From a virus (taxonomy: Duplodnaviria; Heunggongvirae; Uroviricota; Caudoviricetes): a stretch of DNA of 13,815 nt. The stretch is taken from IMG/VR virus record IMGVR_UViG_2778261151_000008, one strand, 5' to 3'. A program made the position numbers. Shown piece by piece: positions 6,001-9,000 of this stretch. Within the stretch, counting starts at the first letter, position 1; each line of letters opens with the position of its first letter.

Positions 6001-9000
6001 TGAAAGCCACTCCCAGCCAGAACGAAACAATTTTCTGGCGCGTCGTGAGCAGTGTTTACGGAAAAGCAGCAAGCGCGCTGTATCGGGTGATGAGTGGTAT
6101 CTGTCAGGGAATTACGTGGGGGCTTAATGACGACGTTAACTCAATGCCAGCAGCAGGTGCTGGATATGCTGATTTCTTACCAGAAAGAACGTGGCTTCCC
6201 GCCAACCAATCAGGAGGTGGCAACCATGCTGGGATACCGTTCAGTGAATGCAGCGGTGGAGCATCTTCGCGCACTGGAGAAAAAAGGTGTCATCACGATA
6301 AAGCGTGGCGTGGCCCGGGGGATAACGCTTCATACCGCGGTGAAGGACGACGACAGCGAGGCGGTCGGGATTATCCGCTCACTGCTTGCCGGTGAGGAAA
6401 ACGCAAGGCTGCGTGCAACCCACTGGTTACATGAGAGAGGCCTGAAAGCATGAAGCTGATCCTGCCTTTTCCGCCCAGCGTGAACACGTACTGGCGACAC
6501 CCCAACAAAGGGGCATTTGCTGGTAAGAGCCTGATAAGCGCGGCGGGGCGAAAATTTCAGAGCGCGGCGTGCGCAGCAATAGTTGAGCAGTTACGTCGTC
6601 TGCCAAAACCAACGTCGGCACCTGCTTCAGTGGAGATCGTGTTGTTTCCTCCGGATAACCGGATCCGCGATCTGGACAACTATAACAAGGCGCTGTTTGA
6701 CGCGTTGACCCACGCGGGTGTGTGGGAAGACGACAGACAGGTGAAAAGAATGCTGGTGGAGTGGGGACCGGTTATCCCGAAAGGGAAGGTCGAGATCACT
6801 ATCAGTAAGTATGAGAAACCGGCGGGTGCAGCCGCCTGATTAAGAGGAGAAACGAAGTATGAATAATCTGATGGTTATTGATGGTATTGAAGTTCGTCGT
6901 GATGTTTATGGGCGTTACAGCCTGAACGATCTGCACAGGGCAGCCGGGGGAGAACAAAAAAACCGCCCGAAATACTGGCTCTCCAATAAGCAAACCTGTG
7001 AATTGATTGAACAACTTTTCACCGAGGGTGGAATTCCGCCTCTGGAACAAAATCAACCAGTTAGCGTCATTAATGGCGGAAATAACCAGGGGACGTATGT
7101 CTGCAAAGAACTGGTGTATGCCTATGCAATGTGGATCAGCCCGTCATTCCATCTGAAGGTGATCCGTACTTTCGATATGGTAACCAGCGCACCGGAAAAA
7201 TTATCCGGGCAGGCTGCTGACAAGATGCAGGCTGGAGTGATTCTGCTGGACTTTATGCGCAGGGAGTTAAACCTGTCTAACTCTTCAGTGCTTGGTGCCT
7301 GTCAGAAACTCCAGGAGGCTGTTGGCTTACCGAATCTGGCACCGCGCTATGCCATTGATGCTCCTGCTGACGCGCCTGATGGCTCAAGTCGCCCTACGCT
7401 GTCGCTGAGTGCACTGCTGAAACAGTATGGTATCCGCCTTACGGCTAATCAGGCATATCACCAGATGGCGAAGCTGGGGATCGTTGAACAACGCGAACGA
7501 TACAGCCGTACCTCGATTAACAACATCAAAAAATTCTGGTCGCTGACAGCGAAAGGCTGCATGTTCGGCAAGAACATCACCAGTCCCGCAAATCCGCGCG
7601 AGACGCAGCCGCATTTCTTCGAATCCCGATTCCCTGAGCTGTTAAAGCTGCTCGATACCGTTCATTGAGGTGACCGTGAGAGCACTACTGACCCCTGAAA
7701 TTGCCCCGCGTATGGGGATCGTATTGTTCAGGCCAGGTTCAGAGCTGATGCCCCTGTTTATGCAGGGGCGTGTCCTGCTGGAGCCTGAGCCGGAACGTTA
7801 TTCATCTTTCGCCAGTGGTGCCGTTCCGGTGGCATCACAACCGCTGGCGGATGATCCTGCCGTTCGGGCCGTGTTCCGCAATGAGGCAGTGATCCGTCGT
7901 GCTGGTGGCGTGGAATGTCTTGAAAGCTGGTTACTTCGTGAAAAAGGCTGCCAGTGGCCTCATTCCGACTGGCACAGCGAGAACATGACCACAATGCGAC
8001 ACGCGCCGGGCGCAATCCGTCTGTGCTGGCACTGCGATAACCAGCTGCGCGATCAGTTCACGGAACGGCTGGAATCAATGGCAACGGATAACTGTGCCCG
8101 CTGGGTGTTGTCTGTTGTGCGTCGGGATCTCGGTTTTGATGACAGTCACGTTGTGACAATGCCGGAACTGTGCTGGTGGCTGATTCGTAATGACCTGGCG
8201 GATGCCTTACCGGAAAGTGCAGCCCGTAAGGCACTGAGATTACCAAAGCCTGTTGTGCCGTCTGTCACCCGGGAAAGTGACCTTGTGCCTTCGGTTCCTG
8301 CCACCAGCATCATCCAGGATAAAGCGAAAAAGGTGCTGGCGCTGAAAGTGGATCCGGAGTCGCCGGAGTCTTTTATGTTACGCCCAAAACGTCGCCGCTG
8401 GGTTAATGAAAAGTACACGCGCTGGGTTAAGACACAGCCGTGTGCATGTTGTGGAAAGCCCGCTGATGATCCCCACCACCTGATAGGTCACGGTCAGGGT
8501 GGAATGGGAACAAAAGCGCATGACCTCTTTGTGTTGCCTTTGTGCAGAAAGCATCACGACGAGCTGCATGCGGATACCGTGGCATTTGAAGAGAAGTATG
8601 GCTCTCAGCTGGAGCTGATATTTCGTTTTATCGATCGTGCGCTGGCAATTGGCGTATTGGCGTAAGTGGAGAACGAGCATGAACCTTGAAGCCTTACCAA
8701 AATATTACTCCCCAAAATCTCCAAAATTGAGCGATGACGCACCGGCGACAGGCTCAGGTGGTTTAACGATTACGGATGTGATGGCTGCGCAGGGGATGGT
8801 GCAGTCGAAAGCACCGCTTGGGTTTGCCTTATTCCTGGCAAAAGTTGGTGTTCAGGATCCTCAATTTGCGATTGAAGGTCTGCTCAATTACGCGATGGCA
8901 CTGGATAACCCGACATTGAACAAATTGAGTGAAGAAACCCGGTTACAGATCATCCCTTACCTTGTGAATTTTGCCTTTGCTGATTATTCCAGGTCTGCGG

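Follow-up and report, generated by a model that had tools for sequence, protein, structure and literature searches.

The window, a stretch of 13,815 nucleotides from a virus of the Caudoviricetes (IMG/VR record IMGVR_UViG_2778261151_000008), carries a small LexA-like gene in the early-right (nin) operon of a lambdoid prophage, with a PerC-family gene on its 5′ side and rusA, which encodes a Holliday-junction resolvase, on its 3′ side (Table 1). The open reading frame lies where the initial annotation had placed it, with an ATG at 6127 and a TGA at 6451-6453 delimiting a protein of 108 residues. An alternative upstream start exists (GTG at 6094), but the ATG is favored because the resulting protein aligns without gaps to LexA Met1 and because RefSeq calls the gene at 327 nt in near-identical loci, where it is labeled ‘LexA family transcriptional regulator’. 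The TAA stop of the PerC-like gene shares one base with the LexA-like ATG (TAATG), and the rusA ATG overlaps the LexA-like stop codon by 4 nt (ATGA), in line with the adjacency to rusA described earlier. Both overlaps suggest translational coupling, and such tight packing is normal throughout the operon. No promoter-like or terminator-like site is found on the + strand directly 5′ of the LexA-like gene in the window.

Table 1. Coordinates of the LexA-like gene, its structural elements and other features of the window
Feature	Position	Strand	Evidence
PerC-family (yfdN-like) gene	5633-6127	+	PF06069 (E=1e-9), phrog_1324, sequence, RefSeq annotation of relatives
CDS, 108-aa protein with a LexA DNA-binding domain only	6127-6453	+	ORF, PF01726, PHROG 362, dN/dS
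Winged helix-turn-helix, residues 1-68	6127-6330	+	AF2 secondary structure, Foldseek matches to 3jso/1lea
Recognition region, residues 39-52	6241-6282	+	Codons read from sequence, family conservation
Recognition codons	S39 6241-6243; N41 6247-6249; A42 6250-6252; E45 6259-6261	+	
C-terminal two-helix hairpin, residues 74-88 and 93-103 (predicted)	6346-6435	+	AF2 model, conservation in relatives
rusA, Holliday-junction resolvase	6450-6839	+	PF05866 (E=1.3e-14), phrog_34 (PHROG 34)
Q antiterminator	8637-9431		
DNA methyltransferase gene	10715-11767		Downstream of Q
SOS-box-like site TACTGTAAAAATAAACAGTG, the only strong one in the window	10723-10742	none	Perfect CTGT-N8-ACAG

[quoted passage not shown] Residues 1-65 align with all 65 positions of the Pfam LexA_DNA_bind profile (PF01726; E=2.9e-19) and score 69 bits, well above the curated threshold of 23.7. 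Residues 1-107 match the 106-position profile of phrog_362 (E=1.5e-59). BLASTP against E. coli LexA gives 39 identities over 90 positions (43%; E=1e-21) with no gaps up to residue 69, and LexA proteins account for all matches in a PDB sequence search. An AF2 monomer model (pLDDT 83, pTM 0.56) places helices at residues 6-22, 28-35 and 40-52 and strands at 56-58 and 66-68, and Foldseek superposes it on the LexA structures 3jso and 1lea with an rmsd of 1.0-1.3 Å over 67-69 residues (49-51% identity). The matches to this domain and to RusA are far beyond chance, and the close parallel to the LexA N-terminal domain drawn in the initial annotation is borne out by profile, alignment and fold alike.

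The absence of the S24 domain, claimed earlier for a chain of about 108 residues, is supported by the stop at residue 108, by the lack of a Peptidase_S24 match in the Pfam scan, and by the NCBIfam lexA equivalog TIGR00498, of which only profile positions 1-91 of 203 are matched with a score of 70.8 against a cutoff of 110.95. Among the features that define LexA proper in TIGR00498, the winged helix is present, whereas the S24 domain with its Ser/Lys dyad and the flexible cleavage-site region are missing. E. coli LexA continues into a protease and dimerization domain containing Ser119 and Lys156; the phage protein has a two-helix hairpin instead and no functional cleavage-site region. Since it contains no Ser/Lys autopeptidase, self-cleavage in the manner of LexA is not expected. 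The Ala84-Gly85 cleavage site of LexA does align with A88-G89 of the window protein, so that ‘LLAGEE’ could be compared with LexA ‘VAAGEP’ as a cleavage-site mimic or a substrate cleavable in trans. This was rejected, because the aligned Ala position is occupied by N, A, E, S or D across the family, the Gly is missing from the sister subgroup of the window's relatives, and the segment is helical in the AF2 prediction.

In functional terms, the protein is analogous to the LexA 1-84 fragment and to lexA3 (Ind-), as in each case the DNA-binding head is not removable by RecA*-stimulated self-cleavage. These are, however, a product and a mutant of the host lexA, whereas the phage protein has a C-terminal module of its own and is encoded by a gene that evolves independently. 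The 1-84 fragment reportedly still binds operators and is actively cleared by ClpXP, and full SOS induction depends on this degradation.

The hairpin stands where LexA has its linker and S24 domain; it is specific to the family, being retained in relatives of 38-52% identity. Neither a PDB profile search nor a Pfam scan yielded a significant homologue of it. Judging from the model, the hairpin is possibly a replacement module for dimerization or for binding a partner. LexA itself dimerizes through its C-terminal domain, and since this domain is absent from the phage protein, a heterodimer with host LexA is unlikely. The isolated N-terminal domain of LexA is said to dimerize on DNA. Several short regulators, namely YtrA-type GntR proteins, MarR/MepR and the BlaI-like Rv1846c, likewise place a few helices after a winged helix, with C-terminal helical dimerization modules, but there is no sequence homology to them and the full-length Foldseek matches are poor (E ~1e-2, TM 0.4-0.5, rmsd 8-10 Å), so the likeness is one of architecture only.

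The specificity determinants of LexA are largely preserved. The window protein retains the full base-reading set of E. coli LexA, namely S39, N41, A42 and E45, which are reported, in a passage of PMC11442139 that cites the 3JSO structure, to mediate read-out of CTGT; the LexA E45K mutant loses specific binding to the recA box (bioRxiv 10.1101/2020.07.14.201889). Conservation was counted over 114 distinct family sequences, 65 from the window's subgroup and 49 from the sister subgroup. S39 and N41 are invariant in all 114 and A42 is found in 109. K53 and the wing residues R64 and G65 are likewise invariant, the latter pair being shared with the E. coli LexA N-terminal domain (1LEA, 3JSO) together with the fold and the base-reading residues. 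At position 45, E or D is found in 63 of the 65 members of the window's subgroup, but 34 of the 49 sister-subgroup members have L, suggesting an altered specificity there. Other LexA positions have diverged: R28, which contacts the backbone in LexA, is replaced by N in the window protein and varies across the family, and E44 is kept in no member. The protein, which keeps the complete winged helix and the CTGT-reading residues, would be a small sequence-specific DNA-binding regulator derived from a gammaproteobacterial LexA, and its operators would be SOS-box-like (CTGT-N8-ACAG).

The sole characterized precedent for a truncated LexA homologue in a phage is gp6 of GIL01, a tectivirus of Bacillus thuringiensis, and gp6 acts as an activator. 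It is thus a precedent for the second option of the initial annotation, a LexA-derived factor for phage promoters, which alone has experimental backing of this kind. The gp6 protein is ~44% identical to the N-terminal domain of the host LexA and binds GaCACAnnTGTGaC, a non-LexA palindrome that it reads through K38; from a site overlapping the -35 element, it directly switches on the late promoter P3 (PMC6182141). Like the protein studied here, gp6 is a LexA DNA-binding domain encoded by a temperate phage and devoid of the cleavage and dimerization domain, although its description names the wing as the sole element that follows the helix-turn-helix and mentions no helical tail (PMC6182141). It belongs to a phage of a Gram-positive host, whereas the LexA-like family belongs to lambdoid phages in which late control is exerted by Q. 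By analogy, the LexA-like family could comprise phage-specific activators or repressors that act through an operator of their own at a few phage promoters and leave the SOS regulon untouched. The loss of E44 and R28, the prevalence of L at position 45 in the sister subgroup and the adjacency to another regulator, PerC, are consistent with such a role. However, the four base-reading residues are retained in the window's subgroup, the late genes of the prophage in the window already have a Q antiterminator, and no operator at a late promoter was identified. Moreover, no other conserved palindrome was found, only CTGT..ACAG with the N8 spacing being enriched. We consider a private, gp6-like factor rather unlikely.

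An intact copy of the LexA-like gene is carried by 2233 of 5426 complete E. coli genomes (41%), and the gene occurs in phages SfV, SfII and mEp460 and in Stx2-converting phages, always in the lambdoid nin region. No study of this phage family was found in the literature searched on related questions. The dN/dS ratio against relatives is 0.04-0.09, and the gene is thus under strong purifying selection. Its resemblance to a truncated lexA, and the name ‘LexA repressor’ given to it in some database entries, might suggest a functionless, decaying fragment of a captured lexA. In effect, selection and conservation already refute this reading, as the gene is intact in so many genomes and in many functional phages and keeps a defined C-terminal extension down to 38% identity, and we give it almost no credence.

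Related loci, collected with two sub-alignments of the family, show how closely the gene is tied to its neighbors. rusA lies 3′ of it in all 89 retrieved loci of the window's subgroup, overlapping it directly in 78, and this neighborhood spans different replication modules and Q types; among all 98 retrieved loci having rusA, it is directly 3′ (overlapping, or 2 nt apart in locus L009) in 79. Together with the ATGA overlap and the translational coupling it suggests, this arrangement would fit an accessory DNA-binding partner of RusA or of nin-region DNA metabolism that, for example, targets or times junction resolution. On the other hand, 73 retrieved loci, all from the sister subgroup, have the LexA-like gene but no detectable RusA, and the DLP12-type nin region of L243 has RusA without the LexA-like gene, so that obligatory functional coupling was rejected as a rule. 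The conserved base-reading residues argue instead for sequence-specific binding to duplex DNA, and overlaps of this kind are the norm across the operon. A partnership with RusA is accordingly improbable.

A search for LexA-box-like dyads was recommended by the initial annotation. The window holds one strong, perfect CTGT-N8-ACAG site (TACTGTAAAAATAAACAGTG); a second perfect dyad at 3859-3874 is treated as chance and was rejected as a real site because its spacer is GC-rich, its score is below 10 bits and it lies inside an ORF. On a rough PSSM, the TACTGTAAAAATAAACAGTG site reaches 22.3 bits, in the range of real E. coli boxes; 95% of the shuffled controls peaked at 16.0 bits or less, and the maximum of 200 shuffles was 22.7. 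It covers codons 3-9 of the methyltransferase gene downstream of Q, and no convincing promoter is seen around it inside the coding sequence. The box is conserved in the 77%-identical methyltransferase of L009 and is a candidate target of host LexA and/or the LexA-like protein. It was rejected as the dedicated operator of the latter, since an identical box is present in the L243 prophage, which has no LexA-like gene.

The position of this box raises the possibility of a controller resembling a C protein, which would time the expression of an upstream Dam or Dcm or of the post-Q methyltransferase. A Dam or Dcm-type gene is found directly 5′ of the LexA-like gene in most relatives, the box over the methyltransferase start is conserved, and the LexA-like gene is present in four of five sampled prophages with a post-Q methyltransferase. 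However, the gene is intact in the window and in some other loci that lack an upstream Dam, the box persists in L243 without the gene, and in most family loci the retrieved flank contains no methyltransferase of this kind. We find this role quite improbable, slightly more so than a RusA partnership.

Across the family, CTGT-N8-ACAG is enriched in both subgroups: loci from the window's subgroup contain 32 sites where ~12 are expected, and loci from the sister subgroup 99 where ~7 are expected. None of the other CTGT..ACAG spacings is enriched in these loci. Alternative half-site spacings and orientations were rejected as operators, because the other peaks stem from repeated homologous coding or hairpin sequence; one arises from a TTACAG-N4-CTGTAA hairpin ~0.7 kb 3′ of a Q-like gene in the sister subgroup. 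In some relatives within the window's subgroup, a box lies directly after rusA and 5′ of a KilA-N gene. Since boxes also occur in prophages without the LexA-like gene (L243 and the Gifsy-1-type L176), host LexA alone explains those observed.

In the sister subgroup, whose retrieved records come from Klebsiella, Enterobacter and Cedecea, the LexA-like gene lies within an SOS-box-controlled dinI-antirepressor operon, in the order box, dinI (PF06183), small GTG-start ORF, LexA-like gene. The box overlaps the -10 element of the promoter, is almost always 0.5-0.7 kb upstream of the LexA-like gene, and scores 17.6-30.2 bits on the rough matrix, mostly at least 24. This closely resembles the LexA-controlled dinI-antirepressor-irsA operon of Gifsy prophages (Lemire et al. 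2011, PMC3121763): in both, the gene is preceded by dinI and a small GTG-start ORF, which themselves follow a terminator and an SOS-box promoter, and the junction sequence 5′ of the start codon is near-identical. Gene order and junction made irsA a candidate homologue of the LexA-like family, but this was rejected. The gene after gfoA/gftA in Gifsy-1, found through the published deletion primer pp644, which was located in 68 viral loci, encodes a 200-residue DUF1367 protein (E=5.5e-97) that is not homologous to the LexA-like protein. Gifsy-1-type prophages thus have the same operon and box with DUF1367 in the slot of the LexA-like gene. The window's own copy, unlike irsA, lies outside such an operon.

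The reading we tentatively favor is that the gene encodes a LexA-type regulator which acts on SOS-like operators in a sequence-specific way, is insensitive to RecA and is produced early in lytic growth. As the self-cleaving tail is absent and a small helical tail stands in its place, the protein is probably a damage-insensitive regulator reading SOS-type operators. Occupation of SOS boxes by an uncleavable mimic, as suggested in the initial annotation, would be consistent with the retained base-reading residues and with the enrichment of the N8 spacing. Dimerization through the hairpin, which is modeled here as a monomer, would bring two heads onto one palindrome, and without RecA*-stimulated self-cleavage the protein would stay bound after host LexA has been destroyed. 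In the window prophage, it would be expressed only after induction or infection, from a pR-type early transcript, and could then re-impose repression on LexA-controlled promoters of the phage, and possibly of the host, during lytic growth. In the sister subgroup, where the gene is encoded inside the LexA-box-controlled dinI-antirepressor operon, it would exert delayed negative feedback on that operon.

A bolder form of this proposal is a RecA-proof ‘SOS off-switch’, in which a stable, tail-dimerized LexA head re-occupies host and phage SOS boxes after LexA cleavage; we regard it as doubtful, if conceivable. Were it true, SOS functions would be shut down in lytic growth, among them colicins, error-prone polymerases, recA itself and the LexA-controlled antirepressors of rival prophages. 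If instead the protein is gp6-like, the reuse of a LexA head by phages as a private transcription factor would extend to lambdoid phages of Gram-negative hosts.

If the off-switch proposal holds, the gene, carried by 41% of complete E. coli genomes, could be a widespread and unrecognized influence on SOS dynamics, on mutagenesis and on competition between prophages. Should the favored regulator bind SOS boxes, a damage-insensitive LexA surrogate that is switched on at prophage induction would be present in nearly half of the sequenced E. coli strains. The duration and strength of SOS expression after exposure to DNA-damaging antibiotics would then be affected, including that of genes for mutagenesis, persistence, colicins and Shiga-toxin phages, and the protein could decide the outcome of competition among co-resident prophages once they are induced.

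The 108-residue product opens with a complete LexA_DNA_bind domain at residues 1-65 (Pfam, E=2.9e-19, scoring 69 bits where the cutoff is 23.7) and is 43% identical to E. coli LexA over residues 1-90, with no gap up to residue 69 (BLASTP; the LexA sequence used agrees with the aligned PDB chains). All nine of its sequence matches in the PDB are LexA proteins. In an AlphaFold2 model from an alignment of 18 family members (pLDDT 82.9) the protein shows the LexA topology, with helices at 6-22, 28-35 and 40-52 and strands at 56-58 and 66-68, and superimposes on 3JSO and 1LEA within 1.0-1.3 Å (49-51% identity). 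The LexA winged helix recognized in the initial annotation is thus borne out, as is the missing S24 domain: the domain search of the protein gave no S24 match, and the NCBIfam LexA equivalog is matched only over its first 91 of 203 positions, scoring 70.8, below the cutoff of 110.95. The adjoining downstream gene does encode RusA (PF05866, E=1.3e-14). PHROG 362 is matched end to end (E=1.5e-59), and on its sequence the protein is a member of PF01726 and of PHROG 362. It would appear to "work like a LexA head", yet the protease, cleavage-site and dimerisation features of LexA, each tested for, were not found, and for this reason it does not count as a LexA proper.

The window comes from a lambdoid E. 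coli prophage of the e14/CPS-53-like type. The TAA that ends the PerC/yfdN-like gene and the ATG of the LexA-like gene have one base in common (TAATG), and the TGA of the latter overlaps the ATG of rusA (ATGA); no plus-strand promoter-like or terminator-like site was found in the window just upstream of the LexA-like gene. Across the whole window, terminator-like hairpins are over-represented (32 versus 13.4 +/- 4.4 in shuffles) and sigma70-like promoter matches are not (14 versus 16.8). The PerC-family product (164 residues) has additional N-terminal sequence that weakly resembles MarR/BilQ-like helix-turn-helix proteins, so two putative regulators are translationally coupled in tandem. The 224-residue immunity repressor, a near-identical relative of which is annotated ymfK, has a visible GDSM...K S24 motif. 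Alongside the non-cleavable LexA head, the phage therefore has a gene for a cleavable LexA-like protease-repressor.

Features of the window and of related loci
Feature	Locus	Coordinates	Strand	Remark
ymfK-type S24 repressor	window	2199-2873	-	
cro-like gene and ymfL	window			downstream of repressor
HTH_36 replication gene	window	4818-5636		
PerC/yfdN-like gene	window	5633-6127		directly upstream of LexA-like gene
LexA-like ORF	window	6127-6453	+	108 codons, MTTLTQCQQQVLDM...HERGLKA
rusA	window	6450-6839		directly downstream of LexA-like gene
KilA-N gene	window	6859-7668		
DUF968 gene	window	7670-8665		
Q antiterminator	window	8637-9431		
Lipoprotein-like ORF	window	9712-10137		
DNA methyltransferase	window	10715-11767		between Q and lysis genes
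Lysis genes	window			past the methyltransferase
Dam methyltransferase gene	L001	7075-7728		
Post-rusA box	L040	4676-4695		AACTGTTTAAACATACAGGT, 21.6 bits; TATAAA element before box
Subgroup B operon	L144	3300-6160		
Subgroup B operon	L006	4500-6000		
Subgroup B operon	L009	4500-5740		

In the account of a review that cites the 3JSO structure (PMC11442139), CTGT reading by E. coli LexA falls mainly to S39, N41, A42 and E45. Specific binding to the recA box is lost with the E45K change, and R28 contacts the backbone (bioRxiv 10.1101/2020.07.14.201889). All four reading residues are present in the window protein with the same numbering (codons at 6241, 6247, 6250 and 6259). Among 114 distinct family sequences from the fetched loci, S39 and N41 are invariant, as are K53 and the wing residues R64 and G65, and A42 is kept in 109. 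Position 45 is E or D in 63 of 65 sequences of subgroup A, the window's own type, and L in 34 of 49 in the sister subgroup B; E44 is retained in none of the family and R28 is variable. With the reading residues kept, the subgroup A head looks competent for CTGT reading.

The only characterised truncated LexA homologue of a phage, and the single studied precedent for the kind with a DNA-binding domain only, is gp6 of the Bacillus thuringiensis tectivirus GIL01, which according to the literature acts from a non-LexA palindrome to activate a late promoter. The LexA-like protein could likewise be a private transcription factor. The changes at E44 and R28 and the L45 of subgroup B fit such a role, but the four residues kept in subgroup A and the presence of Q in the prophage argue against it, and we consider it unlikely. 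The protein also differs from gp6 in its host clade, its added helical tail and its host-type specificity residues.

An exhaustive phmmer search gave 4582 matches, mostly genuine LexA proteins, together with proteins of 106-165 residues aligned over the whole query at 38-52% identity. Alignment of the latter reveals a family-specific C-terminal segment (consensus EAVxxIRALLAGEENARxRAxxWLxxRG), modeled as two helices, 74-88 and 93-103, past a short linker of lower confidence. This hairpin has no significant match in the PDB or Pfam. Both helices bear a broad hydrophobic stripe (V80/I83/L87, A79/I82/L86 and A93/A97/W100/L101), and by analogy with short winged-helix regulators that dimerise via C-terminal helices we infer a role in dimerisation or partner binding; the analogy draws on weak Foldseek matches to MepR, Rv1846c and YtrA. 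The 'AGE' within the segment resembles the LexA cleavage site, a likeness that we rejected because it is not conserved across the family and is predicted to be helical. Other phmmer matches, of 140-350 residues (P0131, P0132, P0149, P0152, P0153 and others), contain two tandem LexA_DNA_bind stretches and may be single-chain pseudo-dimers of the LexA head.

Near-identical DNA of the gene occurs in 2233 of 5426 complete E. coli genomes and in 50 phage records, including mEp460, SfV (orf42, labelled 'unknown'), SfII, Ayreon and many Stx2c-converting phages. A protein-level search adds SfIV, cdtI phage and Stx2a- and Stx2k-converting phages, and close relatives were found in Salmonella, Citrobacter and Hafnia. 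Existing labels read 'LexA family transcriptional regulator', 'LexA DNA binding domain protein', 'transcriptional repressor' or 'hypothetical'; the gene is already annotated in thousands of genomes and its domain is no surprise to a specialist. Literature searches aimed at related questions gave no functional study of the family. Against relatives at 85-86% amino-acid identity dN/dS is 0.09, and the gene is real and under selection. That it is a dead lexA fragment is excluded by the selection and conservation data, and its probability is negligible.

We compared 9 loci obtained by exact-protein look-ups and 160 viral contigs obtained via two sub-alignments. Every fetched locus has the gene in the lambdoid nin region, between the replication genes and Q. 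Subgroup A (89 loci, 65 distinct proteins) has the order [Dam or Dcm methyltransferase] - LexA-like - RusA - [KilA-N or Rha/ANT] - DUF968 - Q. The overlap with rusA is 4 nt in the subgroup A loci examined in detail; larger overlaps among the fetched loci probably reflect an upstream start codon picked by the ORF caller. In most relatives, such as locus L001, yfdN and the LexA-like gene are separated by a phage Dam methyltransferase gene of 654 bp; this gene is cleanly absent from the window, CREC-591, IHE3034 and MB56, where PerC adjoins the LexA-like gene. In subgroup A, the strict adjacency to rusA would suit an accessory factor of RusA, but RusA is absent from most of subgroup B and RusA genes exist without a LexA-like partner, making this role improbable.

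Subgroup B (82 loci, 49 distinct proteins; named members from Klebsiella, Enterobacter and Cedecea) has an N-terminal extension to about 130-165 residues. Its order is terminator - sigma70 promoter - dinI (PF06183) - small GTG-start ORF - LexA-like - 67-aa ORF - DUF968 - Q-like. A strong SOS box overlaps the -10 element of the promoter. The GTG-start ORF is a probable Gifsy-type antirepressor, and the architecture is shared with the LexA-controlled dinI-antirepressor-irsA operon of Gifsy prophages (PMC3121763). Identity of the family with irsA was rejected, as the published irsA deletion primer falls on a 200-aa DUF1367 gene. Since irsA is DUF1367 and not LexA-like, the slot past the antirepressor is filled by unrelated genes in different prophages. 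In the Gifsy-1-type locus L176 (3726-4999), the DUF1367 start is preceded by GCGCCACGGAGAATACCATGGCGCA, a near-match to the ribosome-binding/start sequence of the LexA-like gene in the subgroup B locus L006, and the start codon itself looks like the point of a mosaic junction. Separately, a perfect inverted repeat, TTACAG-N4-CTGTAA (AGTTACAGAAACCTGTAAAT), is kept in more than 30 subgroup B loci some 0.7 kb past the Q-like gene, at about +2840 relative to the LexA-like core (near 6820 in L144, for instance); it could be an RNA hairpin, a terminator or an operator.

The initial annotation had supposed that the protein could occupy SOS boxes, and scanning the window for LexA-box-like dyads yielded a single strong, near-consensus site, TACTGTAAAAATAAACAGTG (10723-10742), with a score of 22.3 bits on an approximate PSSM derived from 21 E. 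coli LexA boxes (training sites 12.9-27.0 bits). Best scores in 200 window shuffles had a 95th percentile of 16.0 bits and a maximum of 22.7. The site overlaps codons 3-9 of the methyltransferase gene, and no convincing promoter was seen around it in the window. It is conserved in a 77%-identical methyltransferase of another genus and in nine fetched loci; the start region of the methyltransferase gene occurs in 1096 of 5426 E. coli genomes, with the box in all five copies sampled. Of five E. coli prophages sampled with this methyltransferase, four also have the LexA-like gene, and the fifth, with a DLP12-type nin region, has an identical box without that gene. A role as methyltransferase controller is very improbable.

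Of the CTGT..ACAG spacings, N8 alone (CTGT-N8-ACAG) is enriched when all loci are taken together (32 versus about 12 expected in subgroup A; 99 versus about 7 in subgroup B). Several subgroup A relatives (L040, L027, L071 and others) have an SOS-like box directly past the rusA stop codon, 5' of the KilA-N gene, which in L040 begins about 90 bp past the box and is homologous to that of the window; the 19-bp rusA/KilA-N spacer of the window lacks such a box. Given this placement, KilA-N may be a LexA-controlled antirepressor-type gene in those phages. SOS operators are plentiful in phages of the family, often with the LexA-like gene beside them. Host LexA is enough to account for the boxes, because Gifsy-type phages carry them without a LexA-like gene.

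Our model builds on these observations: the head is of LexA type and keeps the LexA residues for base reading, a protease domain is lacking, the helical tail is conserved, the gene is under purifying selection, and it lies in the early operon, where its start and stop codons overlap the neighbouring genes. The protein would dimerise via its tail, bind SOS-box-like palindromes and, being incapable of RecA*-stimulated self-cleavage, remain active once host LexA is gone. The isolated LexA head is said to dimerise on DNA (Kim and Little, 1992), and the natural LexA 1-84 fragment reportedly still binds operators and must be destroyed by ClpXP (Neher et al., 2003). In the window prophage, the cleavable S24 repressor would serve as induction sensor, and the LexA-like protein would appear later, with the delayed-early genes, and bring LexA-controlled promoters back under repression; in subgroup B the SOS-controlled dinI-antirepressor operon would come under negative feedback from it. 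We advance this RecA-insensitive SOS-box regulator tentatively, at somewhat short of an even chance, and its strong version, a global SOS shut-off, is doubtful. The protein is extremely widespread, and the question of its function is easily tested.
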